A DNA stretch of 64,000 nucleotides from Escherichia coli (GTDB lineage Bacteria > Pseudomonadota > Gammaproteobacteria > Enterobacterales > Enterobacteriaceae), in NCBI RefSeq assembly GCF_030013595.1, contig NZ_CP122768.1. One strand, written 5' to 3'. The translations under genes were made by a program, and so were the position numbers. The notes under the pieces are model-generated. The model was not told where the DNA came from and made no database searches. It saw only the letters and a list, made by a program, of their open reading frames with translations. Position 1 is the first letter of the stretch, and the number at the start of each line of letters is the position of its first letter. Shown piece by piece: positions 2,377 through 30,339 of this stretch.

Positions 2377-3246
<870 letters not shown>

Positions 3247-3271
3247 GTCTTTAAGTGATAAGCATAAACCG

Positions 3272-3320
3272 CAGCACGATCTTGCATACGACGTGCTACG
3301 GTTTCATTTATCTCCGACCG
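3272..3320. terminator. hairpin between convergent GIY-YIG gene and pin (likely bidirectional terminator); partner of repeat at 2251..2298
   Basis: Dyad AGCACG-13 nt-CGTGCT followed by GGTTTCATTT; overlaps last pin codons. Confidence 0.45.
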
Positions 3321-3894
3321 GAAACTTCTTATACAAAGTCGATACACCCACATCGTAGATAATCGCCACCTTCTGGCGAGGAGTTCCTGCTGCAATTAAT
3401 CTTCCGGCTTGTGCCCATTGTTCTGGTGTAAGTTTGGGACGACGTCCACCAATTCGTCCCTGTGCGCGAGCAGCTTCCAGTCCAGCTTTTGTTCGTTCAA
3501 CAATCAGTTCACGCTCCATTTCAGCCAGGGCACCCATCACATGAAAGAAAAAGCGTCCCATTGGTGTGCTGGTATCAATTGAATCCGTCAGACTATGAAA
3601 GTTGATGCCTCGTTCGCGCAACTCCTCCACCAACACGACAAGATGCCGCATACTACGCCCCAGCCGATCCAGCTTCCAGACAACCAGAGTGTCACCTGCC
3701 GATAATGTCCTGAGCAGTTTTTTCAGTCCCGGCCTTTCGGACTTTGTGCCGCTTATCTTGTCTTCAAAAATCAGCTCGCATCCTGCACAGTTCAGCGCAT
3801 TACGTTGTAGATCTGTGTTCTGGTCATTTGTTGATACGCGTACATAGCCAATAAGCATGGTAGATCCCCCTGACAAAAGCAGGAATGATGCCAT
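3304..3894 (-). CDS. pin: DNA invertase Pin (Gin/Hin/Cin serine recombinase family)
   Basis: 196-aa ORF begins MLIGYVRVSTNDQNTDLQRNAL, near-identical to recalled e14 Pin. Confidence 0.95.
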   Translation of the reverse strand: MASFLLLSGGSTMLIGYVRVSTNDQNTDLQRNALNCAGCELIFEDKISGTKSERPGLKKLLRTLSAGDTLVVWKLDRLGRSMRHLVVLVEELRERGINFHSLTDSIDTSTPMGRFFFHVMGALAEMERELIVERTKAGLEAARAQGRIGGRRPKLTPEQWAQAGRLIAAGTPRQKVAIIYDVGVSTLYKKFPVGDK

Positions 3895-3912
3895 TTGCTC
3901 GTTATTTCTGCA

Positions 3913-3938
3913 TTTTCATAAACGTTGGTTTGGGAGAA
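3913..3938. repeat. gix/pix-like inversion crossover site (pin-proximal)
   Basis: TTTTCATAAACGTTGGTTTGGGAGAA; reverse complement matches 5774..5799 at ~20/26 and fits the AAACC..GGTTT core of Gin/Hin sites. Confidence 0.6.
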
Positions 3939-4283
3939 GCGGCAAAGAGGAATGTGGGGACAGGAGAAAATCAGGTACCGGATATGAACAGCTTTGGTAA
4001 CTCATTGACCGCCAATGGATACCAGAAATTACCTGGGGGGATGATTATTCAATGGGGGAGTTTTTCTGTCTCACCAACCGGAGGAAGTGTTGGAACAGTT
4101 GATATAACATTACCTGTAGCTTTCCCTGCTGCTTGTCGTTCGGTAAACGCTCTTATTTCAACTAATGATCCTTCTGCCCGTTCTGTGGGCTTTGATATTG
4201 GAAGTACCAACAGAACTAAAATCAGATTTACTTACACTTCTGCTACAACAAATTCAATTTACTGGATGGCTGTGGGGTATTAA
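3939..4283 (+). CDS. alternative tail-fibre C-terminal segment (Sv'-like), silent in this orientation
   Basis: In-frame coding begins at the crossover site; followed by a tail-fibre-assembly gene; upstream part of track ORF 3885.. spans the recombination site. Confidence 0.6.
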   Translation, partial: AAKRNVGTGENQVPDMNSFGNSLTANGYQKLPGGMIIQWGSFSVSPTGGSVGTVDITLPVAFPAACRSVNALISTNDPSARSVGFDIGSTNRTKIRFTYTSATTNSIYWMAVGY

Positions 4284-4285
4284 CT

Positions 4286-4717
4286 ATGGAAAAGACATAT
4301 TATTTTAATCCCTCTGATTCGGGATTTTATATTTCACCAGATAGCCAAACCATTCCTGAGAACGCTACGAAAATAAACTTTACTATTTATTCTGAGTTCG
4401 CAGGAGTTGCATGGCCTGATGGTAAAATACTTGGTTCAGATAAAAATGGTTTTCCAGCATGGCAGGATGCGCCACCACTTACCAGCGAAGAATTAATCTC
4501 AATCGCTGAATCAAATAAACAGCGATTAGTTAATCAGGCCAACGAATACATGAACAGTAAACAATGGCCTGGTAAAGCGGCGATTGGTCGTCTGAAAGGT
4601 GAGGAACTGGCGCAATATAATTTGTGGCTGGATTATCTGGACGCACTGGAACTGGTCGATACTTCCAGTGCGCCAGATATTGAATGGCCTACTCCTCCGG
4701 CAGTTCAGGCCAGATGA
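4286..4717 (+). CDS. tail fibre assembly protein (alternative, U'-like)
   Basis: 143 aa; C-terminal [12 protein letters not shown] motif typical of Tfa proteins; inside invertible segment. Confidence 0.75.
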   Translation: MEKTYYFNPSDSGFYISPDSQTIPENATKINFTIYSEFAGVAWPDGKILGSDKNGFPAWQDAPPLTSEELISIAESNKQRLVNQANEYMNSKQWPGKAAIGRLKGEELAQYNLWLDYLDALELVDTSSAPDIEWPTPPAVQAR

Positions 4718-5294
4718 CATCCGGCGCGGTACTGGTATCTGTTGCCGTCACCGCGTCAATGTAATCCAGCACAGTGTTAAGTCGGGTGGTCTCTGCCTGC
4801 ATCAGCTTCCGCCCGGCCTGCAATTTCAGTTGAATCAGACTAATGGAAGCCATTGCAGTATCAATCAGTGACTGACGTTGTGCTTCTGCCGCGTCTACTG
4901 CGGCGCTATGCTGTGTCTCAGTATCCGTTACCCATTTCTCACCATCCCATTTATCGTATGGCGTTAACGGGGCGATAGTGGTTGTTTTTTCGGGGTAATC
5001 ACCCGGAGTTGTGATTTCTTTGGCGTCTCCCGTTTCGGTGTTATAGACGATTTCACCGCGATGGTCTGGTACATATTCCCATGAGTTAAAATCTGCAGAG
5101 CGGCAGATTGCATAACCAGCTTTGTAGGTGCCTGGAGCATCTAAACAGGAATATGCCGGAATGCCGACACCAACAGCAAGATATTCAGTTGAAGCTGAAA
5201 TATACTCCCGACTCATGACGTCAAAGTTATAAACAGTAATTTCTCCTGCCATAGTGGCAATTAATTCACTGTTTAATTCTGCGTTATTCATCAT
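4689..5294 (-). CDS. tail fibre assembly protein (expressed orientation, U-like)
   Basis: 201 aa; C-terminal [15 protein letters not shown]; directly downstream of tail fibre gene. Confidence 0.8.
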
Positions 5295-6076
5295 GCGGCC
5301 CTCACAATATAATTAAAGGCGATGTTACGTGGACGATTTTCATTTGCTGTTGGAACAACATTTGCCGCCGAGAAGTGAACATCTTGTCGGATTTTTCGGT
5401 CATTAGCGTATGTCATAGACACATTGATGTTATTCCGGACTGAGGTACCTCCGTAAAAAGCTCCACTCACACTTTGAACATCGACAATTGCATTAATTTC
5501 GCTGTTTACGCGCAACTGACCAAAACCGCCAGTAATGTTTCGAATAGCATCTCCTTGCGATGAAAGCAGAGTTCGCCCACTATCCACACCACGTTCATCA
5601 TCCCAGCCACGAATAAACTCACCGCGTAAATCAGGCAATTTATTTGTCGGGTAAGACTTTGCCAGTTCCGGGTATTCTTCAGCAGAAAAAGCCGCACCAT
5701 TGCATTTCAGCCAGCCTGTTGGTGGAGTGGCTGAAGGCCACGGAACAGGCACACCAACGGGTAATGCCGAACCTTCTCCCAAACCAAGGTTTTCGAGAGC
5801 TGTTTTCACCGTGCCATCCGATTTGATATCGCCAAACGGATTCTTGCGGCTTAACAGCAGCGCACGAAGCGCGGTAAGCAGCTGGTCATGCCGCCCCTTC
5901 TCCAGGCTGGCACCGGATGCCTCCACAACGCTGCAAAGCTCCTCCTGCAACATGTCAAAGTAGTCATCATCCAGATCGGTGGCAGGCGTGCCGGTCTGGG
6001 GGTTACCACGGGTAAAACCGTTCTTACCCGCGCCGAACTTATCCTTCTGCGCGGTTTTCGTGTCTATACGATGCAT
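5291..6076 (-). CDS. tail fibre protein (constant N-part fused to variable C-part)
   Basis: 261 aa; contains second crossover site about 92 codons in; position after Mu gp48-like gene. Confidence 0.8.
5774..5799. repeat. gix/pix-like inversion crossover site (inside tail fibre gene)
   Basis: TTCTCCCAAACCAAGGTTTTCGAGAG, inverted repeat of 3913..3938. Confidence 0.6.
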
Positions 6077-6079
6077 GGA

Positions 6080-6664
6080 TTACTCCGGATATTTAAAAAT
6101 CACATAGGTATGCGACGGGCAGAGTTTGTTAAGAACACACTCGACAACGGTGTCCCCCCAGAAGCGCAGCGCGGAATCACAGGGATCGCCACATGTCATC
6201 CAGGTGGTGTTGGTGGCGGCTGGCATGTTGACCTGCCAGTAATACCGCCATTCAGGCGCATTCACCGCGTCAGTACAGGCCGATGAGCAGGTGAACGTGC
6301 TTTTGTCGTATCGCGTGATGTTGGCATCCAGTCTGCCCAGGGCAGCAAGCTGTGCAAGATAAAAATTCTCGTTGATGCCGCCCGCCAGGTTAACCTTCGC
6401 ATCCAGCCGTTGCTGACGCTGGCGAAGGGTCTGTGTCCCTGTAGGAATACATTCATCCGGCAGGCCGCACAGACGCTCCCAGCGATTTATCAGTTCGGTG
6501 GTGGTGCGCGGATCCAGCTCCCGCATCAGGGCATCCGCACGCTGATGAACGCGGGTTAATGACGGTGCCGCACCGGCAATCGCCGGATCGCTGGCTGACC
6601 ACGCCGGACCGGGCGGCAACAGTGCTGACAACAGACGGATGTAATCATCGTTTGTCACGTCCAT
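6080..6664 (-). CDS. Mu gp48-like tail protein (YmfQ/DUF2313 family)
   Basis: 194 aa; resembles e14 YmfQ-type protein; position between baseplate J and tail fibre. Confidence 0.75.
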
Positions 6665-7713
6665 GAAATCGCCCCCAGAACCGCCAGTTCATTTTTTGCA
6701 ATGGTGATATTGTCCGCCGGTGCAAGCAACTGATGGCTGTATTCCCCGTTCGCACCGGAAATCGCTTCACTGATACGTGACACCTTCAGTTCTCCCTGCG
6801 GATAACCATCACGCAGCAGGAACGAACGCAACTCCGCGGTGATGGCAGCCCGTATTTCCGGTGTGTCCGGCGTAACACGGATATGAAAATCCACCGTATG
6901 TGCCACCGGCCTGAACACATACAAATCAGAGCCTGCCACCGGGGCCAGTGGCCCGATATGTTGTCTTGCCGCCGTTTCCGTTGATTCTTCCGGAATGGGA
7001 TTAATCAGGTCACTGCTGGCAATCATCACACCGACAGTCCCCGTTCCCATCCAGTGTCGGTATGTCCATGCGCGGGTAATGCCAGGCACTTCTTTAGCCC
7101 AGACGACATAGTCCCCGTCAGCCCCGCCCTGCGGCGTCCAGTAATACCGCTCAATGACGCGGGCGCGCCACGTTTCCAGCTCTTCAGTATCAAATCCGCC
7201 TGTCAGGGTGTCAGCCACACCGGAAGACGGCAGACCATTCACCGGCGTGACCAGGATTAATGCCGTACCGTCGTCAGCGTTACCGACCGCACCTGCACTT
7301 GAGCAGGCGATCGGCACGCGCAGGACACCACCGGAGCTGATTGCATCGTCAGTTGTCGTGTACTGCACCAGGTCATCGCGCTGAATAACACTCCCGGCAG
7401 TCACCTTCAGGCCATCGCTGACACCTTCCCAGCGCATATACCCGCTGGCAACCGTGGCTCCCTTGCGCGGACACCGTTTCATCGCAGCATGTCGCGCCAA
7501 CCAGGACTCATCGCACAGGTCAGGCAGCATATTCATTGCCAGATAATCGATGTAACCGTAGACCGTATGCAGCGCCGCCGCATACACCTTTGCCCGCACG
7601 TCTTCATCCATGCGCCGGAGCGTGTCGCTGACGTCCAGCCTGGCGAATAAATCGTTACGGAGCATACTGATATTTTCTGCCAGCGTCGGGCGCTGAAATT
7701 CACTGTCCGCCAT
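6655..7713 (-). CDS. baseplate J-like protein (Mu gp47-like)
   Basis: 352 aa; family resemblance and synteny. Confidence 0.8.
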
Positions 7714-19910: not shown

Positions 19911-21129
19911 TGGCGTTATCCTTCTGCTTACCGGCTTTACTGCCATCGGAGGGCTTCGTGGTCATGTTCATCGGTGTGAGATAGACATCACCACCGGGAC
20001 GCGGATTCATATCTTCCAGGTCGCGGCAGTCATTGGGAGAGTAAATTCCCCAGTTGATCCCGGTGGCGTAGGCTTCAAAACGGGACTTCATATCCCCGCG
20101 CAGTAACGCCCCGGCGTTAAATTTGGCGTAATAAACACCCTGCTTACTTTTTCGTACCAGTCCGGTGTTGATCCGCTGCTCAATGCGGGTCAGATACGGC
20201 ACCAGTGAATAGTTGATAAATCCGAGCCCCAGCTCTTCGATATTGTTGAAGGTGGCGCGATCGGTGTTCTGCACCATGTGCAATGGCACACGGAACAGAC
20301 GACAAATTTCTTCAAGCTGAAACTTGCGGGTTTCCAGGAACTGGCTGTCCTCTGCGTTCAACGCCATCGACTTCCAGTCCAGCCCCATCTCAAGGATCAT
20401 CGGGCGGTGAGCATTGCCAAGCCCGGTGTGACGCTCCTCAAAATCTTTCTTCAGGCGCTCATAAGCCTGATCCGACAGCGTCTGCTCTGTACGCAACACA
20501 CCCGACGTCACCGCGCCATTGCTGAACAGTCTGGCCCCGTGCTCTTCGGTCGCTGCCGCCAGCGATATTGCCTCGCGGGCATAGGCGATGGGATTCAGCC
20601 CCACCAGTCCGTCCAGCGTCAGCGTGCGCACATGCCAGATATCCTCCTGGCTCAGTACATCCGTGGAGCCATCCGGGAATGTGACCTGATAGATCGGCTC
20701 CCAGCTACTGTTAAGCTTCGGTACCACACAGCCGGGATCGACGGGCAGCAGTTCAGCCACTTCGCCAAATGCTTTCACTTTGTAGGCGTAAAAGTTTCCC
20801 CGCAGGCACAGACAGGTGACCACCAGCTCCCAGAACTCCTGCGGCGTCATATAGTCATTGGGATGCGTGGAGATCAGCTTATGCAGACGTTCGCCAGTGG
20901 CTCTCTGCTTCAGGCTGCCGTTCAGGTGATACAGGTTGCAGGGCAACATCCCGACCGACTCCGCCAGCACCCTGACACAGGAAAAAACCGCCGTCAGTCG
21001 CATGGCCCGCTGGCTGCTGATCTGCTTTCCGGTATAGGTGTCGTAGGACAACCCGATAGCATCCGCCAGCTCTGCTGGCGTGGTCACCGGTGCGTCACTT
21101 TTTCGTTGAAATAATCCCGAAAAGAACAC
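19888..21129 (-). CDS. portal protein
   Basis: 413 aa; between terminase and protease. Confidence 0.9.
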   Translation of the reverse strand: MFFSGLFQRKSDAPVTTPAELADAIGLSYDTYTGKQISSQRAMRLTAVFSCVRVLAESVGMLPCNLYHLNGSLKQRATGERLHKLISTHPNDYMTPQEFWELVVTCLCLRGNFYAYKVKAFGEVAELLPVDPGCVVPKLNSSWEPIYQVTFPDGSTDVLSQEDIWHVRTLTLDGLVGLNPIAYAREAISLAAATEEHGARLFSNGAVTSGVLRTEQTLSDQAYERLKKDFEERHTGLGNAHRPMILEMGLDWKSMALNAEDSQFLETRKFQLEEICRLFRVPLHMVQNTDRATFNNIEELGLGFINYSLVPYLTRIEQRINTGLVRKSKQGVYYAKFNAGALLRGDMKSRFEAYATGINWGIYSPNDCRDLEDMNPRPGGDVYLTPMNMTTKPSDGSKAGKQKDNANADETTS

Positions 21130-21311
21130 TATTTACCTCCGCCGACAGACGACTGTGTACGGTCGAGATATCGCGCCACCAGCCACGACCAGAACAGGCA
21201 CAACGCCCCGGCAACAACAAACCCCGCCGGGGGATAAATCAGCCAGGCACCATACGCCAGCAAAAGCGCCCCCAGCACGCCCACCAGAGGCGCGAGAATC
21301 AGCATGATCAT
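21129..21311 (-). CDS. small two-helix membrane protein
   Basis: 60 aa, two hydrophobic segments; between terminase large subunit and portal. Confidence 0.35.
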
Positions 21312-21322
21312 AATTACCTCAG

Positions 21323-23056
21323 TTAAAGCGAGCGGATCCCATAGGACTCAATGTGGTCAGACAACGTGTCTTCTTTCTCGTACAGCATGGCTCTGCCAAC
21401 CGCCATAATCAGCGCAACTGCACCATCGATTTTGTTTTCCGCCTGCTCTTTGACGGGCTTCACCACATCATCGTTACCCGGAATGGTTTTGCCGACCACG
21501 TTGCCGATACACCAGGTCATGATGGGATTGCCATCATGATGAAAGCGCCCCGATTCAATTGCCGCTTCCAGCTCTTTCATCGGGTCGGACATGTTGGTGT
21601 AGTTCTGAATGATAGTGATGGGGTTCAGGTCTTCATCAGCCAGGTCATGTGACAGCCCGGTCGCCCCGAAGGGGTCGATGGGTGACTCACTGACCGGGCT
21701 GATTTTGTTCGCCGCTTTGGCCTCCTCGAGGATGTAGCGATAATCCACCTCCGCACCATCGGTAACGGTCAGAACGCCCATTACCACCCATTTCTGAAAG
21801 CGTTCGGCTGTCCGTCGATCTTCATTTTTCTCGACACTGTACACCGTGTCATACGGTACCCAGAAACGCGGGGCCACACTGTAGTAATGCGTTTTACCGT
21901 CAATCTCGCGGGTATAAAGTCGCGCCATGCTGTTCATATCCAGCTTACGCGCCAGGTCAAAGGCCAGAATGCACGGCTGCCCCTCGAACTGCTCAAGGGT
22001 CAGTGATTTATCCTCGCAGCTCTGCCAGCTCACCAGGTTGAAATACGCCGAACGCGCCGACACCCAGATATTGAGGTGCTTTGTTTTAAAGACGTTTGCC
22101 AGACGGGCGTTATTTTTCGCACGCTGCTGCTGACTTAACAAAAATTCGCGATAAACCGACACGCCAATATTCGGGTTAGCTTTTTCCAGCACCTGCGGGT
22201 CGGTCCAGTCATCGCCTTCGTCAACGGTATAGATGATCCCGAACAGTTCATCGTTGGGTACCGACCCGTTGAGCATCTCGATAACTTCCCGCCGCTTGTC
22301 GTAGCACGGCCCCTCAATGTTGTACCCGGCAGTAGTAATGGCCCACATCAGTGGCTGACGTCGCGCCCCCATCCCGGTAAGCATCGTGGTGTAAAGCGCA
22401 TCGGTGGCGTGCTCGTGATATTCATCCACCACCGCACAGTGGGGTGATGATCCATCACCGGGGTTACCGATCAGCGGTTCAAACCGCGCGCCATCCTCCG
22501 GACGGTTCATGTTTGAGGCGTTAACCTCAATCCCGAACGCTTCCGTCAGCATGGGCGTGCGTTTACACATCAGTCGCGCCGGGCGAAAGACTTCCCACGC
22601 CTGTTTCTCTGTCGTGGCACCGGAATACACTTCCGCGCCAAACTCGTTATCACAGGCAAAACAATACAGGGCAACACCGGCAGAGATTGCTGATTTGCCG
22701 TTCTTACGGGGGATTTCGGTATACACCTCCCGGAAGCGGCGCAACCGGGTGCCTTTATTGACCCAGCCAAACGCACAGCAGATCACAAAGAGCTGCCACG
22801 GCTCCAGCGTGATGGGCATCCTCTTGAATGCCCACTCACCCTTGGTGTGCGGCAACAGCTGAATAAATTTGGCGGCCCGTTCAGCCAGGTCCTTGTCGAA
22901 GCGGTAACGAAACGACTTACTTTTTTCCGCCATCAGGTCATCAAGATGGCGCTGGCAGGCCTGAATCACAAACTGGCAGGCCACAATCTTTCCGCGAACG
23001 ACATCCCGGGCATACTGATTGGCAGCATTTACGTTGGGGTAAGATTTCCGGCTCAT
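21323..23056 (-). CDS. terminase large subunit
   Basis: 577 aa; ATPase-nuclease family resemblance. Confidence 0.9.
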
Positions 23057-23556
23057 GATTCGATGATTTTCAGAAACGGGTTAGTAGCTTTCTTCTGCCC
23101 CGCCAGGCCAATCAGACGCTGGCGGCTGCTGGGGTCGAGTCCGAGCATTGCCCCCGTGCTGCTCATCTCGGACTCCTGTTCTTTTTTGGCGGTCAGCTCA
23201 GGATTTTTGACCATACCGCCCATTGCACCGGTGATGGTGTTGCCCTGTCTGGCAATATTTTTCACGGCACGTCGCCAGAACTCATAGGCCACACACCACC
23301 GCTCAAGCACCGCGAGGTCAGTCACGCACAGCAGGCCCTGACCGCAAAGTTCTTTAGTTGTCAGTTGCCACATGATCGTGGCGAGAGGGAGATCTTCTTC
23401 AGCGAACCACTCCGGTGGCTCAACACCTTTGATGGGCGTAAAAACAGGTTCATCTTTATTCAGGGCTCGCTTGCCGGGGTTTCCGGCCAGCGCCTTGCGC
23501 GCCGTTGGCTTGGGGCGACGCCCGGAACGCCCCGCCGTTCCAGCCATATGCGGCAC
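23053..23556 (-). CDS. terminase small subunit (P27 family)
   Basis: 167 aa; 4-nt overlap with large subunit. Confidence 0.8.
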
Positions 23557-23672
23557 TCCTGGTTAAATTTCATTTTTCGCGGGTATAAAAAAACGATGGG
23601 GCGGGCAGTCCGGAAGACGTCAGGTCACAGAGATTTGACCCGCCCCTCCCCTCAGACAGTTGAGAATTATTA

Positions 23673-24023
23673 TCACTTTAGCCGTTCACGGGCCGTCTTC
23701 GCCTTATGGCACGGCCAGCACAGGCTCTGCAGATTACTGTCTGCATCGGTGCCGCCATGCGCTTTAGGGATGATGTGGTCAACGGTTTTCGCCTCACGCA
23801 CCACACCAGCACGCAGACATAACTGACACAGGCCTTTGTCACGCTTCAATATGCGCGCGCGGATACTGTCCCACTTCGAACCGTAGCCGCGCTGATGACG
23901 GGATTGCCCCGGCTTGTATTGTTTCCAGCCTTCGTTTTTGTGGCTTTCGCAGTAGCCTGACGGGTCTGTAGTGGTATTACGGCAGCCGCGAACGCGGCAG
24001 GCTTTTGGGATTCGTGATGGCAT
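23673..24023 (-). CDS. HNH endonuclease (packaging-associated)
   Basis: HNH motif DHIIPKAHGGTDADSNLQSLCWPCHKAKT plus Cys-rich zinc ribbon; ATG 24021-24023 with GGAG 5 nt upstream. Confidence 0.85.
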   Translation of the reverse strand: MPSRIPKACRVRGCRNTTTDPSGYCESHKNEGWKQYKPGQSRHQRGYGSKWDSIRARILKRDKGLCQLCLRAGVVREAKTVDHIIPKAHGGTDADSNLQSLCWPCHKAKTARERLK

Positions 24024-24149
24024 ATGTACTCCAATGAAGAAGCCACCGACATAGCCTCCTCCATTCATCGTGAAACTATTTTCATCTACGCAGTCATGAA
24101 TTCTTTGTAGAGTTGTGATCAATACAACTCACTAATGGAGAGGCTTGTC

Positions 24150-24171
24150 CAACACGTTGGACAAGTTTCCT
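24150..24171. repeat. perfect 10-bp inverted repeat with 2-bp spacer (CTTGTCCAAC-AC-GTTGGACAAG), then T-rich tract
   Basis: Read directly; could be an operator or an orphan + strand terminator. Confidence 0.4.
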
Positions 24172-24246
24172 GTTTGATTTACTGGACACTATAGAAGGAC
24201 AGAATGCCTTCCTCACTCGAATAACATTAATTAAGGAGGTTCAACA

Positions 24247-25575
24247 CTGATGAATCCCCTAATGATTTTGGTAAAAATCATTAAGTTAAGGTGGATACAC
24301 ATCTTGTCATATGATCAAATGGTTTCGCGAAAAATCAATAATCAGACAACAAGATGTGCGAACTCGATATTTTACACGACTCTCTTTACCAATTCTGCCC
24401 CGAATTACACTTAAAACGACTCAACAGCTTAACGTTGGCTTGCCACGCATTACTTGACTGTAAAACTCTCACTCTTACCGAACTTGGCCGTAACCTGCCA
24501 ACCAAAGCGAGAACAAAACATAACATCAAACGAATCGACCGATTGTTAGGTAATCGTCACCTCCACAAAGAGCGACTCGCTGTATACCGTTGGCATGCTA
24601 GCTTTATCTGTTCGGGCAATACGATGCCCATTGTACTTGTTGACTGGTCTGATATTCGTGAGCAAAAACGACTTATGGTATTGCGAGCTTCAGTCGCACT
24701 ACACGGTCGTTCTGTTACTCTTTATGAGAAAGCGTTCCCGCTTTCAGAGCAATGTTCAAAGAAAGCTCATGACCAATTTCTAGCCGACCTTGCGAGCATT
24801 CTACCGAGTAACACCACACCGCTCATTGTCAGTGATGCTGGCTTTAAAGTGCCATGGTATAAATCCGTTGAGAAGCTGGGTTGGTACTGGTTAAGTCGAG
24901 TAAGAGGAAAAGTACAATATGCAGACCTAGGAGCGGAAAACTGGAAACCTATCAGCAACTTACATGATATGTCATCTAGTCACTCAAAGACTTTAGGCTA
25001 TAAGAGGCTGACTAAAAGCAATCCAATCTCATGCCAAATTCTATTGTATAAATCTCGCTCTAAAGGCCGAAAAAATCAGCGCTCGACACGGACTCATTGT
25101 CACCACCCGTCACCTAAAATCTACTCAGCGTCGGCAAAGGAGCCATGGGTTCTAGCAACTAACTTACCTGTTGAAATTCGAACACCCAAACAACTTGTTA
25201 ATATCTATTCGAAGCGAATGCAGATTGAAGAAACCTTCCGAGACTTGAAAAGTCCTGCCTACGGACTAGGCCTACGCCATAGCCGAACGAGCAGCTCAGA
25301 GCGTTTTGATATCATGCTGCTAATCGCCCTGATGCTTCAACTAACATGTTGGCTTGCGGGCGTTCATGCTCAGAAACAAGGTTGGGACAAGCACTTCCAG
25401 GCTAACACAGTCAGAAATCGAAACGTACTCTCAACAGTTCGCTTAGGCATGGAAGTTTTGCGGCATTCTGGCTACACAATAACAAGGGAAGACTTACTCG
25501 TGGCTGCAACCCTACTAGCTCAAAATTTATTCACACATGGTTACGCTTTGGGGAAATTATGAGGGGATCTCTCAG
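24247..25575 (+). mobile_element. IS10, complete 1329-bp copy
   Basis: Outside end CTGATGAATCCCCTAATGATTTTGG at 24247, inside end CTGAGAGATCCCCTCA (reverse complement) at 25560-25575; flanks GGTTCAACA and TATTAAGCG differ, so no 9-bp duplication. Confidence 0.95.
24354..25562 (+). CDS. IS10 transposase
   Basis: 402 aa beginning MCELDILHDSLYQFCPELHLKRLNS, matches recalled IS10 transposase over its length. Confidence 0.97.
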   Translation: MCELDILHDSLYQFCPELHLKRLNSLTLACHALLDCKTLTLTELGRNLPTKARTKHNIKRIDRLLGNRHLHKERLAVYRWHASFICSGNTMPIVLVDWSDIREQKRLMVLRASVALHGRSVTLYEKAFPLSEQCSKKAHDQFLADLASILPSNTTPLIVSDAGFKVPWYKSVEKLGWYWLSRVRGKVQYADLGAENWKPISNLHDMSSSHSKTLGYKRLTKSNPISCQILLYKSRSKGRKNQRSTRTHCHHPSPKIYSASAKEPWVLATNLPVEIRTPKQLVNIYSKRMQIEETFRDLKSPAYGLGLRHSRTSSSERFDIMLLIALMLQLTCWLAGVHAQKQGWDKHFQANTVRNRNVLSTVRLGMEVLRHSGYTITREDLLVAATLLAQNLFTHGYALGKL

Positions 25576-25604
25576 TATTAAGCGTCAATGAGCGTCTGGA
25601 AAGA

Positions 25605-26519
25605 ATGAAAGGCAGGCGCTCAGACATTACGGTGACAGAATGGCTTGATAAATATATTTCTATCCAGGAGGACAGGCTGCAACATAATGAACTAAGACCC
25701 AACTCCTATCGGCAAAAAGGCAAACCCATTCGTCTTTTCCGTGAGCATTGTGGAATGCAACACCTCAAGGATATTACCGCACTTGATATTGCCGAAATAA
25801 TTGATGCTGTAAAGGCTGAAGGTCATAACAGGATGGCGCAAGTCGTGAGAATGGTGTTGATCGACGTCTTCAAAGAAGCACAACACGCAGGACATGTTCC
25901 GCCAGGATTTAACCCAGCGCAGGCAACAAAACAACCGCGAAATCGAGTAAACCGCCAAAGATTGTCACTGCCCGAATGGCAGGCAATATTTGAAAGCGTA
26001 AGCAGACGGCAGCCCTATTTAAAATGCGGCATGCTACTTGCTCTTGTTACTGGACAACGTTTAGGCGATATCTGCAATTTGAAATTCTCTGATATATGGG
26101 ACGACATGTTGCACATTACTCAGGAAAAAACCGGTTCAAAACTTGCTATTCCGCTTAACCTGAAATGCGATGCTCTGAATATTACCCTTCGTGAAGTTAT
26201 ATCTCAGTGCAGGGATGCTGTTGTTAGTAAATATCTGGTCCATTACCGTCACACTACCTCTCAAGCAAACAGAGGAGACCAGGTTTCTGCAAATACTCTG
26301 ACAACGGCTTTTAAAAAGGCCCGGGAAAAATGTGGCATAAAATGGGAGCAAGGAACTGCGCCCACATTTCATGAGCAGCGATCTCTGTCAGAACGGTTAT
26401 ATCGGGAACAGGGTCTGGATACGCAAAAGTTGTTAGGCCATAAATCCAGAAAAATGACCGACCGATACAATGATGATCGTGGTAAAGACTGGATTATCGT
26501 AGATATCAAAACAGCATAG
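25605..26519 (+). pseudogene. lambda-family tyrosine integrase lacking the N-terminal arm-binding domain
   Basis: 304 aa aligning to lambda Int from about residue 65; catalytic motifs (HxxR, LLGH, DRY) intact; frame closes at a stop inside the IS10 end. Confidence 0.8.
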
Positions 26520-26529
26520 AAAATAGCCA

Positions 26530-26565
26530 GTTTTGGGGAAGGGTTTTGGGGAAAGTTTTGGGGAA
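26530..26565 (+). promoter_or_regulatory. three direct 11-bp repeats GTTTTGGGGAA (candidate integrase arm-type sites)
   Basis: Copies at 26530, 26543, 26555 between int stop and icd stop. Confidence 0.4.
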
Positions 26566-26580
26566 GATTTTACATCATCA

Positions 26581-26609
26581 TAAAACAACGGGCGTGTTAT
26601 ACGCCCGTT
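26581..26609 (-). terminator. icd transcription terminator
   Basis: 9-bp stem AACGGGCGT/ACGCCCGTT, 5-nt loop, U-rich tail on minus strand just after icd stop. Confidence 0.6.
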
Positions 26610-26632
26610 TCAATATTTAACACATGTAGAGA

Positions 26633-27883
26633 TTACATGTTCTTGATGATTGCATCACCAAACTCGCTGCATTTCAGCAGTTTAGCACCTTCCATCAGAC
26701 GTTCGAAGTCATAGGTTACGGTCTTGGCGTTGATTGCGCCTTCCATACCTTTAACAATCAAGTCTGCGGCTTCAGTCCAGCCCATATGGCGCAGCATCAT
26801 CTCAGCGGAGAGAATAATAGAGCCTGGGTTTACTTTGTCCTGACCGGCATATTTCGGCGCAGTACCGTGGGTGGCTTCAAACAGGGCGCATTCGTCACCG
26901 ATGTTTGCGCCTGGGGCGATACCGATACCGCCGACCTGTGCAGCCAGAGCGTCAGAAATGTAGTCACCGTTCAGGTTCATACAGGCGATAACATCATATT
27001 CAGCCGGACGCAGCAGGATCTGTTGCAGGAATGCGTCAGCAATCACGTCTTTAATGACGATCTCTTTGCCGGTATTCGGGTTTTTAACTTTCAGCCACGG
27101 GCCGCCGTCGATCAGTTCACCGCCAAACTCTTCACGCGCCAGCTGGTAGCCCCAGTCTTTAAACGCGCCTTCGGTGAACTTCATGATGTTGCCTTTGTGC
27201 ACCAGGGTCACAGAGTCACGATCGTTAGCAATTGCGTATTCGATCGCTGCACGAACCAGACGTTTGGTGCCTTCTTCCGAACACGGCTTAATACCGATAC
27301 CGCAATGTTCCGGGAAGCGAATTTTCTTCACGCCCATCTCTTCACGCAGGAATTTAATCACTTTCTCGGCGTCGGCAGAGTCAGCTTTCCATTCGATACC
27401 CGCATAAATGTCTTCCGAGTTTTCACGGAAGATAACCATATCGGTCAGTTCAGGGTGTTTAACCGGGCTTGGAGTGCCCTGATAGTAACGTACCGGACGC
27501 AGGCAGATGTAGAGATCCAGTTCCTGACGCAGGGCAACGTTCAGAGAGCGAATACCGCCACCAACCGGAGTGGTCAGCGGACCTTTAATGGCAACGCGAT
27601 ATTCACGAATCAGATCAAGGGTTTCAGCAGGCAGCCAGACATCCTGACCATAAACCTGTGTGGATTTTTCACCGGTGTAAATTTCCATCCAGGAGATTTT
27701 ACGCTCGCCTTTATAGGCTTTCTCGACTGCAGCGTCGACCACTTTCAGCATGGCTGGGGTTACATCTACACCGATTCCATCACCTTCAATGTAAGGGATA
27801 ATCGGATTTTCAGGAACGTTGAGTTTGCCGTTTTGCAGGGTGATCTTCTTGCCTTGTGCCGGAACAACTACTTTACTTTCCAT
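26633..27883 (-). CDS. icd: isocitrate dehydrogenase (NADP)
   Basis: 416 aa, [45 protein letters not shown]; full-length match to recalled E. coli Icd. Confidence 0.97.
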
Positions 27884-28054
27884 TCACCTCTCCTTCGAGC
27901 GCTACTGGTTTGCTCGTCTGCCACCACGTTGCATATGCGTTTGCGTCCTGCGATACGGATGCTTTAGAGCAATTTTTTGTTAATGATTTGTAATTGGCTT
28001 GTCAATACTACCCTATTGTTTGCCGTCATGAAAGATGCGCGTTATTAGGCTATA

Positions 28055-28708
28055 ATGCGGCAATTCATAATCTCTGAAAATACCATGCAAAAAACTTCTT
28101 TTAGAAATCACCAGGTTAAGCGATTCAGCTCGCAACGTTCTACCAGGCGTAAACCTGAAAACCAGCCCACGCGTGTGATCCTGTTCAATAAACCCTACGA
28201 TGTTCTTCCGCAGTTCACCGATGAAGCCGGACGCAAAACATTAAAAGAATTCATCCCGGTTCAGGGCGTTTATGCAGCAGGTCGTCTTGACCGCGATAGC
28301 GAAGGGTTACTGGTGCTGACCAATAACGGCGCGTTGCAGGCGCGTTTAACCCAGCCGGGTAAACGCACCGGAAAAATCTATTATGTGCAGGTGGAAGGTA
28401 TTCCCACACAAGACGCACTTGAAGCCTTGCGCAATGGCGTAACCTTAAATGATGGCCCTACCCTGCCCGCAGGCGTAGAGCTGGTTGACGAACCCGCGTG
28501 GTTATGGCCGCGGAATCCACCAATTCGTGAACGCAAAAGTATTCCCACCAGCTGGCTGAAGATCACCTTATATGAAGGACGTAATCGCCAGGTGCGCCGC
28601 ATGACCGCCCATGTTGGTTTCCCCACGCTGCGACTGATTCGCTATGCGATGGGTGATTACTCTTTGGATAATCTTGCCAACGGCGAATGGCGAGAAGCGA
28701 CAGATTAA
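28055..28708 (+). CDS. rluE: 23S rRNA pseudouridine synthase E
   Basis: 217 aa; sequence and synteny next to icd. Confidence 0.9.
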
Positions 28709-28717
28709 GGACGCAAA

Positions 28718-29179
28718 ATGTTTAAACCGCACGTTACCGTTGCTTGCGTGGTGCACGCAGAAGGCAAATTTTTAGTCGTTGAAGAGACGATTAATGGTAA
28801 AGCGTTATGGAACCAACCTGCCGGGCATCTGGAAGCCGATGAAACCTTAGTGGAAGCCGCCGCCCGTGAGCTGTGGGAAGAAACCGGCATCAGCGCGCAA
28901 CCGCAACACTTTATTCGTATGCATCAGTGGATTGCGCCAGATAAAACGCCGTTTTTGCGTTTCCTGTTTGCTATTGAGCTTGAGCAAATATGCCCGACCC
29001 AGCCTCATGACAGCGATATCGACTGCTGCCGTTGGGTTAGCGCCGAAGAAATTTTACAGGCGTCAAATCTTCGTTCGCCACTGGTGGCGGAAAGTATTCG
29101 TTGTTATCAAAGCGGGCAACGCTATCCGCTAGAGATGATTGGCGATTTTAACTGGCCTTTTACAAAGGGTGTCATCTAA
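28718..29179 (+). CDS. nudJ: Nudix phosphatase NudJ
   Basis: 153 aa with Nudix box; synteny. Confidence 0.9.
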
Positions 29180-29232
29180 AAGGCTGCGTGATAGAATACG
29201 CCGCCTTGAAGTTCAATGTCGTGAGTGATCCA

Positions 29233-30339
29233 ATGTCTGAAACCGCAAAAAAAGTAATCGTCGGCATGTCCGGCGGTGTCGATTCCTCCGTTTCTGCCTG
29301 GCTGTTGCAACAACAGGGATATCAGGTCGAAGGCCTGTTTATGAAGAACTGGGAAGAAGACGACGGTGAGGAATATTGCACAGCGGCAGCGGATCTGGCT
29401 GATGCCCAGGCTGTCTGCGACAAGCTCGGCATTGAACTGCACACCGTTAACTTTGCTGCCGAGTACTGGGACAACGTCTTCGAACTGTTCCTTGCCGAAT
29501 ATAAAGCCGGTCGCACGCCGAATCCGGATATTCTGTGCAACAAAGAGATCAAATTTAAAGCCTTCCTCGAATTTGCCGCTGAAGATTTAGGTGCCGATTA
29601 TATCGCTACCGGTCATTACGTACGTCGGGCAGATGTCGATGGCAAGAGCCGCCTGCTGCGTGGTCTGGACAGCAATAAAGACCAGAGCTACTTCCTTTAT
29701 ACGCTCAGCCATGAGCAGATTGCGCAAAGCCTGTTCCCGGTCGGCGAACTGGAAAAACCGCAGGTGCGTAAGATTGCTGAAGATCTCGGTCTGGTCACCG
29801 CGAAGAAAAAAGACTCTACCGGCATTTGCTTCATTGGCGAGCGTAAATTCCGCGAGTTCCTGGGCCGTTATCTCCCGGCGCAACCGGGCAAAATCATTAC
29901 CGTCGATGGCGATGAAATTGGTGAGCACCAGGGGCTGATGTATCACACCCTCGGTCAGCGTAAAGGTCTGGGTATCGGTGGCACCAAAGACGGCACCGAA
30001 GAACCGTGGTATGTGGTCGATAAAGACGTCGAAAACAACATTCTGATTGTTGCGCAGGGCCATGAACACCCGCGTCTGATGTCTGTCGGTCTGATTGCCC
30101 AGCAGCTGCACTGGGTCGATCGCGAGCCGTTCACCGGTACTATGCGTTGCACAGTAAAAACCCGCTATCGCCAGACCGAGATCCCGTGCACCGTCAAGGC
30201 GCTGGACGATGATCGCATTGAAGTGATTTTCGATGAGCCGGTTGCCGCCGTGACGCCGGGCCAGTCTGCCGTTTTCTATAACGGTGAAGTGTGCCTCGGT
30301 GGCGGTATTATTGAGCAGCGTCTGCCGCTGCCGGTCTGA
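29233..30339 (+). CDS. mnmA: tRNA-specific 2-thiouridylase
   Basis: ATG at 29233 ([22 protein letters not shown]-loop) gives 368 aa; track ORF has 15 extra codons. Confidence 0.92.

Follow-up and report, generated by a model that had tools for sequence, protein, structure and literature searches.

Does the DNA between pin and the tail-fibre gene of this Escherichia coli prophage form a site-specific inversion switch, and does that switch still serve a host-range function in a prophage that is visibly decayed? Working across the window (by which we mean the whole 64-kb stretch of DNA analysed), we conclude, with a probability of about 0.9, that the locus is a P segment of the e14 type, i.e., a member of the Din (Gin/Cin/Hin/Pin) family of site-specific inversion switches. 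The sequence-only reading had proposed a host-range switch of the Gin/Cin/Pin type, and this proposal is supported on every part that sequence can address, namely the invertase, the sites, the in-frame cassettes and the occurrence of both orientations. The segment looks fully functional. The e14-type P segment is already known, textbook phase-variation biology, and the cassette alleles found here differ from those of K-12; beyond correct annotation, the importance of the locus is small, as a clean and apparently functional example of such a switch. In this host, it is most likely a still-active leftover and not a working host-range device.

Crossover sites and alternative tail-fibre genes

The features on which the argument draws are the following, in the order of their coordinates in the window:

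3304..3858, minus strand: pin, a DNA invertase and small serine recombinase of 184 aa (Pfam Resolvase and HTH_7)
3769..3840, minus strand: putative recombinational (Fis) enhancer at pin nt 19-90, placed by position
3885-4283, plus strand: pin-proximal ORF in the present state, for a product of 132 aa, with its ATG in the pin-side flank, outside the segment
3913..3938, no strand: pin-proximal crossover site (pix), with its centre TT at 3925-3926
3926..4283, plus strand: alternative gp53-like tail-fibre C-terminus, currently unjoined to the constant part (Pfam Gp53-like_C, 9e-19)
4286..4717, plus strand: assembly chaperone of the gp53-like C-terminus, 143 aa (Pfam Caudo_TAP, 4.7e-30)
4689..5294, minus strand: TfaE-like assembly chaperone of the currently fused C-terminus, 201 aa (Pfam Caudo_TAP, 4.8e-30)
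5291..5786, minus strand: currently fused collar-type (StfE-like) C-terminus (Pfam phage tail Collar domain, 1.1e-15)
5774..5799, no strand: distal crossover site (pix), inside the fibre gene, with its centre AA at 5786-5787
5787..6076, minus strand: constant N-terminal part of the fibre, 97 codons, outside the segment
6080-6664: ymfQ (Mu Gp48-like), which, like baseplate J, precedes the fibre gene in the late operon

A 26-bp inverted repeat pair with an AAACC..GGTTT core had been proposed at 3913..3938 and 5774..5799 as the boundary of a segment of ~1.9 kb. The pair is indeed found at these coordinates, and its crossover centres lie 1861 bp apart, in keeping with the proposed length, but the repeat is not perfect: in the 26-bp register, 3913-3938 (TTTTCATAAACGTTGGTTTGGGAGAA) and 5774-5799, the latter read as its reverse complement (CTCTCGAAAACCTTGGTTTGGGAGAA), agree at 21 of 26 positions, and only the 15-nt inner halves (3925-3939 and 5773-5787) are identical. 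Likewise, the right site carries the core without change (AAACCAAGGTTT), while in the left site a single base deviates from it (AAACGTTGGTTT). A repeat finder pairs 3920-3939 with 5773-5792 at 19/20 positions, and none of 100 shuffles of 2500-7500 gave an inverted repeat of this quality. The central dinucleotides, AA at 5786-5787 and TT at 3925-3926, are the same once the sites are read as inverted. The locus displays two inverted 26-bp sites that are imperfect dyads around AA with equal central dinucleotides, carry the Din consensus and are close to P1 cix and Mu gix. Both are 100% identical to the e14 P-segment sites of K-12 (MG1655), the pin-proximal one when read as its reverse complement (TTCTCCCAAACCAACGTTTATGAAAA) and the distal one as TTCTCCCAAACCAAGGTTTTCGAGAG. 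We also considered extra crossover sites, as in shufflon- or Min-like multi-inversion systems, and rejected them, as only two sites were recovered, whether the query was the 26-mer, its 15-mer inner half or the AAACCNNGGTTT core: the 15-mer CTTCTCCCAAACCAA occurs in just two places in the 64 kb with up to two mismatches allowed, and AAACCNNGGTTT has four further weak hits, no more than expected by chance.

Between these sites, two tail-fibre C-termini and their assembly genes are arranged in opposed pairs, as had been claimed, with each C-terminus followed by its own Caudo_TAP chaperone and both chaperones lying within the segment. One pix is situated inside the fibre gene, at the codons for ENLGLGE, so that a flip swaps all that follows residue ~97. 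As the segment now lies, the collar-type C-terminus is in frame with the constant 97-residue N-terminus (261 aa in all); flipping the segment in silico places the gp53-like C-terminus in frame with the same constant part, giving an open frame of 215 aa that is identical at 215/215 residues to WP_000554683.1 of E. coli strain FHI_NMBU_10. The chaperone genes are tightly spaced behind their partners, with the start of the 201-aa chaperone overlapping the fibre-gene stop as ATGA and that of the 143-aa chaperone lying 2 nt after the stop of the gp53-like cassette. The fibre gene is best annotated as an orientation-dependent fusion. The second set had been described as silent and oppositely oriented; the orientation holds, and the silence has to be qualified in view of the ORF at 3885-4283, which has its own ATG outside the segment. 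Within the collar-type C-terminus, there is also a patch (5348-5580) that differs from the closest relatives.

The invertase and the two states of the segment

Pin displays the architecture of a small serine recombinase, with a catalytic Resolvase domain (1.4e-51) bearing the nucleophilic Ser9 and a C-terminal helix-turn-helix (HTH_7, 6.4e-15). Its residues 1-181 align end to end with the Gin structures 3UJ3/4M6F (E 1e-92), and 180 of its 184 residues are identical to those of K-12 PinE. It is the sole invertase of the window, in which tblastn found no second one. In the P1 record, the enhancer used by Cin is annotated at cin nt 19-90. Over the same stretch (nt 19-90), pin shares 79% identity with P1 cin and 76% with Mu gin, compared to 72% and 68% for the rest of pin, and is 100% identical to K-12 pinE. 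By analogy, inversion by Pin would depend on Fis and this putative enhancer, the Fis sites of which are placed provisionally, from position and homology. An earlier assignment of these sites to two G-N13-C motifs, at pin nt 53 and 101 with a spacing of 48 bp, was dropped in favour of the P1-enhancer-homologous nt 19-90. Pin further contains a QAGRL motif (QxxRL) along with K46, K47 and R50, which we take, in our own numbering of the Hin sequence, to be the counterparts of Hin Q151/R154/L155 and of the basic Hin residues 47/48/51. These residues of Hin contact Fis or the enhancer and are described as conserved in enhancer-dependent invertases only (PMC3798978).

Drawing on Hin and Gin, we envisage that Pin, made from the gene adjoining the segment, would bind the two 26-bp pix sites as dimers, and that the bound dimers would synapse with a Fis-bound enhancer in the 5' end of pin. 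Cleavage by Pin at the central AA/TT, a 180-degree rotation and religation would then flip 1861 bp. In the present state, the constant N-terminus joined to the collar-type C-terminus (261 aa) is followed by the 201-aa chaperone, and in the other state the constant N-terminus joined to the gp53-like C-terminus (215 aa) by the 143-aa chaperone.

Both states are found among relatives. Nine complete E. coli genomes carry the flipped junction over its full 800 nt at 97.5-99.8% identity, a tenth does so at 88% coverage, and the relatives show an inversion of the whole segment with breakpoints inside the shared 20 nt (3920-3939; 5773-5792). Between two near-clonal pig isolates, LCP30S3_I5 and HCP5S3_I2 (chromosomes of 5,270,552 and 5,270,553 bp), the segment is exactly inverted between these sites; the 12,167 flanking nt are 100% identical, and both isolates share one and the same IS3 insertion in ymfQ. 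The exact configuration of the window occurs in no complete E. coli genome searched; for 3200-6800, the best match covers 93% of the query at 98.2% identity, and for 20000-30000, no record reaches 80% coverage. The finding is thus not a single orientation coupled to an inactive pin, which would have spoken against the sequence-only reading: relatives show both orientations, and pin is intact here. We infer that inversion is probably ongoing in this strain itself, assemblies of which may accordingly show either orientation.

Could the switch instead be stuck, with intact-looking sites and pin but an orientation frozen through too little Pin or a defective promoter? A simple scan detected no sigma-70 promoter above shuffle expectation for pin or the pin-proximal ORF, inspection by eye of the 82 nt upstream of pin revealed weak hexamers only, and the prophage is otherwise decaying (tape-measure amber, IS10 and truncated integrase; see below), all of which would fit such an arrest. 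Nevertheless, we regard it as unlikely, because the pix sites are those of K-12, pin matches K-12 pinE without a difference over nt 1-225, the gene is free of frameshifts and stops, and between pix and the pin ATG the DNA does not differ from the lineage of the very recently flipped pig isolates. Moreover, other Pin paralogues of E. coli are reported to be able to act in trans on these sites (PMC12529663).

An e14-type switch in a decayed prophage

Several features place the prophage in the e14 lineage: it is integrated at icd (26633-27883, beside the integrase remnant), as is e14 of K-12, encodes a Mu-like baseplate with ymfQ and has pinE at its distal end; PGAP names ymfQ and pinE in relatives. 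The attR copy of icd is absent from the window and lies outside it. The P segment and PinE of e14, a cryptic prophage of E. coli K-12, were reportedly first described by Plasterk and van de Putte in 1985, in EMBO J 4:237 (as cited in PMC12529663 and PMC4272514). P-segment inversion by PinE has been seen in clonal K-12 cultures by whole-genome sequencing and PCR (PMC4272514), and the K-12 segment is locked in pinE and pinE pinQ mutants (PMC12529663). Aside from the sites and Pin, the likeness to this experimentally studied system extends to the gene order (ymfQ, fibre, chaperone, chaperone, fibre C-terminus, pin), YmfQ (186/194 residues identical), the first 105 fibre residues, which include the 97-codon constant part (102/105 identical to StfP), and the 201-aa chaperone (171/199 identical to TfaE). 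In contrast, the cassettes have diverged: the gp53-like C-terminus represents another allele than that of StfP (43/103 identical), the collar-type C-terminus shares only 102 of 162 aligned residues with StfE, and the 143-aa chaperone is similar to TfaP in its C-terminal half (53/78 identical) but different in its N-terminal half. The segment also differs in length (1861 bp, versus 1797 bp reported for K-12) and is inverted relative to the MG1655 reference, and the prophage has retained a complete head and tail module, which is lost in e14 of K-12. Beyond pin lies a gene for the PD-T4-3 anti-phage nuclease (GIY-YIG), where K-12 has mcrA.

The sequence-only reading held that an amber codon in the tape-measure gene, unless suppressed, blocks particle formation. 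The amber is present, as TAG at 12826-12828 in place of the CAG of a relative, but the damage goes beyond it. Directly between the HNH/terminase genes and a 5'-truncated integrase adjoining icd lies IS10 (24247-25575), and no lysis, replication or regulatory genes are found between the terminase module and icd, an interval that in a fuller relative is occupied by lysis genes. The prophage is a non-inducible remnant, and particles are not expected without a helper. We identified no late activator in the remaining prophage, of which the stretch left of pin is only partly annotated. With the early/lysis region lost and no late activator identified, the fused fibre gene may be entirely unexpressed. 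As a prophage without particle production, the locus offers a possible natural test of a host-level (anti-phage) role of e14-type inversion.

Such a role has a precedent in K-12, where inversion of the e14 P segment produces StfE2, a protein that blocks T2 adsorption (PMC12529663, 2025). By extension, the segment of the dead prophage might have been kept for the host, with a short receptor-binding protein masking outer-membrane receptors as proposed for StfE2. As the orientation here is opposite to that of the MG1655 reference, the pin-proximal ORF has, like StfE2, an StfP-like (gp53-like) C-terminus. Compatible with retention for the host are also the mostly synonymous change in pin relative to K-12 (11 synonymous versus 4 non-synonymous codon differences), the recent flip in the even more decayed prophage of the near-clonal pig isolates, and the adjoining PD-T4-3 gene. 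If it were so, the Pin switch would be a selected phase-variable host function that toggles the pin-proximal ORF (ATG 3885) versus the fused fibre, the switch and the adjacent PD-T4-3 would form a small anti-phage island, and the 2025 claim for StfE2 of K-12 would be extended to a different cassette allele. However, the gp53-like C-terminus is so distant from that of K-12 StfP (the 43/103 given above) that the T2 result is not directly transferable, and the published StfE2 effect stems largely from over-expression. Furthermore, an AGGA directly abuts ATG 3885 with zero spacing, a poor ribosome-binding context, the scan found no promoter-like site upstream, and the ORF is matched by no PADLOC model. 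The purifying selection on pin, for its part, could predate the loss of phage activity. Hence, we consider retention for a host function quite improbable and favour the e14-type switch as a still-active leftover.

Relationship to Mu, P1 and other phages

Outside e14-type prophages, the layout has a parallel in the G segment of Mu (~3 kb), in which the constant S N-terminus likewise lies outside and the S/U and S'/U' cassettes within, and gin is located immediately outside, with the 5' end facing the segment. The Mu baseplate has its counterpart here in Gp48/YmfQ and baseplate J, and Pin aligns with Gin over 181 residues at the E-value given above, the two genes being ~70% identical at the DNA level. 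The differences are in the central dinucleotide of gix, which is GA in place of AA, and in the fibre, which in Mu is ~500 aa long with a longer constant part than the 97 residues found here. P1/P7 cix, on the other hand, is very similar to pix and shares its AA centre (TTCTCTTAAACCAAGGTTTAGGATTG versus TTCTCCCAAACCAAGGTTTTCGAGAG here), and the enhancer annotated in the first 90 nt of P1 cin corresponds to the stretch over which pin is 79% identical. The C segment of P1/P7 is ~4.2 kb long, and in P1 cin points toward it, with cixL overlapping the 3' end of cin, whereas pin has its 5' end on the segment side.

SfV-like Shigella phages (SfI, SfII, SfIV and SfV) share the baseplate, ymfQ and the constant fibre N-terminus at 95-97% identity, but their homology ends exactly at the distal pix (window 5773). 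Neither pin nor the segment was found in these four phages at megablast sensitivity, and their fibres are apparently fixed. A conserved fibre motif is indeed encoded by the perfect 15 nt, and the boundary coincides with a mosaic junction in these phages, but we hold it to be highly improbable that the repeat is just the LGLGE coding motif of two opposed fibre genes, inverted by general homologous recombination with no dedicated switch, since RecA-dependent exchange would be inefficient over a shared stretch of just 15-20 nt, the sites span 26 bp and have the consensus and dyad described above, an intact Din invertase adjoins them, and the K-12 segment is locked in the pinE and pinE pinQ mutants already mentioned. 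P2-like phages (Escherichia phage P2 from O157:H43 T22 and Salmonella phage MET_P1_103_31) match in the invertase, both chaperones and part of the cassette at 86-88% DNA identity, but have a different baseplate and constant fibre part; the matches cover only 43-45% of the 3.6-kb query. Their match to the invertase and cassette points to an invertase-plus-cassette module that is common to different phage types.

An e14-type segment with two opposed fibre cassettes

We found that the locus belongs to the e14 P-segment/PinE system and carries cassette alleles other than those of K-12; it is already known biology. The Gin/Cin/Pin-type switch proposed in the sequence-only reading is supported by sites that are those of K-12 e14, by the near-identity of Pin to K-12 PinE (180/184 residues) and by both orientations in public genomes. 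The segment, i.e., the invertible DNA between the two crossover (pix) sites, and its surroundings comprise:

3304-3858, minus: pin, encoding a 184-aa protein with Resolvase and HTH_7 domains
3913-3938 and 5774-5799, inverted orientation: crossover site pair, 26 bp each
5291-6076, minus: tail-fibre gene, after ymfQ (Mu Gp48-like) and baseplate J
within the segment, minus: collar-domain C-terminus, now fused to give a 261-aa fibre
within the segment, minus: 201-aa Caudo_TAP chaperone, its start overlapping the fibre stop as ATGA
within the segment, plus: gp53-like C-terminus
within the segment, plus: 143-aa Caudo_TAP chaperone, beginning 2 nt past the gp53-like C-terminus
3885-4283, plus: 132-aa ORF of the unfused cassette, with its own ATG in the pin-side flank, outside the segment

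The inverted repeat pair claimed earlier is present at its coordinates, with the AAACC..GGTTT core exact at the right site (AAACC-AA-GGTTT); the left core (AAACG-TT-GGTTT) has one mismatch, and in that register the two sites are identical at only 21/26 positions. Their inner halves (3925-3939, 5773-5787) match over 15 nt with no mismatch, and a repeat finder pairs 3920-3939 with 5773-5792 at 19/20. Serine invertase strand exchange needs identical central dinucleotides, and those of the two sites, TT (3925-3926) and AA (5786-5787), are equal after allowing for the inverted orientation. The pair is not a chance repeat, since a 19/20 inverted repeat arose in 0/100 shuffles of 2500-7500, the 15-mer inner half occurs at two places only in the 64 kb even at ≤2 mismatches, and the remaining weak core-pattern matches are at chance level. 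The sites flanking the e14 P segment of K-12 MG1655 are 100% identical to both 26-mers; P1 cix is a close match to their consensus and Mu gix a weaker one.

Like e14, the prophage lies at icd, and it resembles its K-12 counterpart in YmfQ (186/194 identical), the constant fibre N-terminus (102/105 within the first 105 residues) and the 201-aa chaperone (171/199 to TfaE). The cassettes are different alleles from those of K-12, the gp53-like C-terminus being identical to that of StfP at 43/103 positions and the collar-type C-terminus to StfE at 102/162, and between its flanks the segment lies in the reverse of the orientation in the MG1655 reference. The gene directly past pin (2473-3246, plus) matches the anti-phage protein PD-T4-3, a GIY-YIG nuclease, over its full length (PADLOC E 2e-140; Pfam LEM-3_GIY-YIG) and fills the slot of the restriction gene mcrA in K-12 e14.

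Both predicted cassettes, each a fibre C-terminus with its assembly gene, were found in opposed orientation. The distal site lies inside the tail-fibre gene, at ENLGLGE codons, and an in-silico flip between the central dinucleotides places the gp53-like C-terminus in frame behind the 97 constant codons, yielding a 215-aa fibre. The set described as silent is indeed unfused and oppositely oriented, but it has its own ATG and forms the ORF at 3885-4283, which overlaps the region upstream of pin on the opposite strand and whose equivalents in relatives are annotated by PGAP. Anti-phage activity has been attributed to StfE2, the corresponding K-12 product (PMC12529663). As AGGA directly abuts the ATG, a poor ribosome-binding context, and no promoter-like site was seen for this ORF, we keep its product as putative.

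Within the collar-type C-terminus, a patch of ~230 nt (5348-5580) is unaligned with the closest genomes (E. coli FY10, A2 and FHI_NMBU_10) and matches a different strain group, which suggests recombination within the receptor-binding region. The chaperone genes are convergent, their 3' ends overlapping by 29 nt (4689-4717), and an 18-nt inverted repeat (4627-4644/4753-4770) stems from the conserved LDY(L/I)DA motif, for which each of the two strands codes.

Both orientations in related genomes

Flipping was tested on public genomes of relatives of the window strain. The junction predicted for the flipped state, which joins the constant part to the gp53-like C-terminus, is present with 97.5-99.8% identity across all 800 nt in nine complete E. 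coli genomes and at 88% coverage in a tenth; the present-orientation junction occurs in about 30. The entire segment is reversed in strains A2 and FHI_NMBU_10, with alignment breakpoints within the shared 20 nt (3920-3939, 5773-5792), and the predicted 215-aa fibre is the annotated WP_000554683.1 of FHI_NMBU_10 (215/215).

The inversion is clearest between LCP30S3_I5 and HCP5S3_I2, near-identical isolates that a single study obtained from pig faeces. They have chromosomes of 5,270,552 and 5,270,553 bp, a common IS3 insertion splitting ymfQ and flanks of 100% identity over 5,051 and 7,116 nt, and their segments are exactly inverted (NZ_CM149862.1/NZ_CM149870.1, 4122000-4136000). Judged from these chromosomes, the lineage is clonal and the flip recent. 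Their prophage, in which an OB-fold gene comes straight after the DNA-circularisation gene, is at least as decayed as that of the window; the exact inversion therefore indicates that heavy decay of the element has left the switch active. In clonal K-12 cultures, both orientations were found together by whole-genome sequencing and PCR (PMC4272514), and in pinE and pinE pinQ mutants the K-12 segment is reported to be locked (PMC12529663).

Decay of the prophage

11761-13593, minus: tape-measure gene, with TAG at codon 256 (12826-12828)
24247-25575: IS10, 1329 bp, directly following the HNH and terminase genes
25578-26519: 5'-truncated tyrosine integrase, abutted by IS10 and adjoining icd
26633-27883: icd

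The tape-measure amber noted earlier is confirmed as an in-frame TAG where the close relative FY10 has CAG (Gln), and a glutamine-inserting suppressor would give back FY10's residue. The defect had been put down to this amber, but the decay is far greater, extending to IS10, the truncated integrase and lost regions. The stretch from the terminase module to icd, in which a fuller relative has lysis genes, is devoid of genes for lysis, replication or regulation. As the early, regulatory and lysis regions of fuller relatives are missing, the prophage cannot be induced; given so defective an element, the fused orientation denotes a fibre joined in frame, not necessarily expressed. One reading that departs from the ordinary is left, retention of the switch for an anti-phage function at host level, and we regard it as improbable.

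Between the tape-measure and DNA-circularisation genes, an AT-rich ORF (11139-11669, minus; 176 aa, 34% GC) is missing in FY10, has no match in Pfam, NCBIfam or PADLOC and looks like a moron.

Pin, its predicted enhancer and related phages

The sole invertase in the window, Pin retains the nucleophilic Ser9, and its residues 1-181 can be aligned with those of Gin in structures 3UJ3/4M6F (E about 1e-92). The first 225 nt of pin show no differences from K-12 pinE, and the 82 nt between pix and the pin start codon are the same in the window and the pig-isolate lineage. In the P1 record, nt 19-90 of cin are annotated as the Cin enhancer. Over the colinear part of pin (3769-3840), identity reaches 79% with P1 cin and 76% with Mu gin, against 72% and 68% in the rest of pin. 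In our numbering of the Hin sequence, Hin Q151/R154/L155 presumably correspond to QAGRL of Pin, and the basic Hin residues 47/48/51 to K46/K47/R50. On that correspondence, Pin has the Fis/enhancer-contact residues reported as conserved only in enhancer-dependent invertases (PMC3798978). We infer by analogy that the pin system would have a functional enhancer and depend on Fis. As in Hin/Gin (PMC3798978), Pin dimers at both sites would assemble with the Fis-bound enhancer and cut the DNA at the central dinucleotide, and subunit rotation would then bring about strand exchange.

In the functional SfV-like phages SfI, SfII, SfIV and SfV, the DNA for the baseplate and the constant part of the fibre is 95-97% identical to that of the window. 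This homology stops exactly at the distal pix (5773), and no pin or segment match was found in these four at megablast sensitivity. The pix site with its LGLGE coding motif also marks a mosaic boundary in tail fibres that apparently do not invert. P2-like phages match the invertase and chaperones at 86-88%. From these comparisons, the invertase-plus-cassette unit behaves as a module moving between phage types, and the crossover site doubles as a mosaic boundary.

A further 26-nt inverted repeat (22/26; 2987-3012 and 3863-3888) encloses the entire pin and the 3' end of the PD-T4-3 gene, with one arm over the pin ribosome-binding region; it is unlike a pix site in appearance, and the probability of its arising by chance is roughly estimated at <0.01 in a region of 5 kb.
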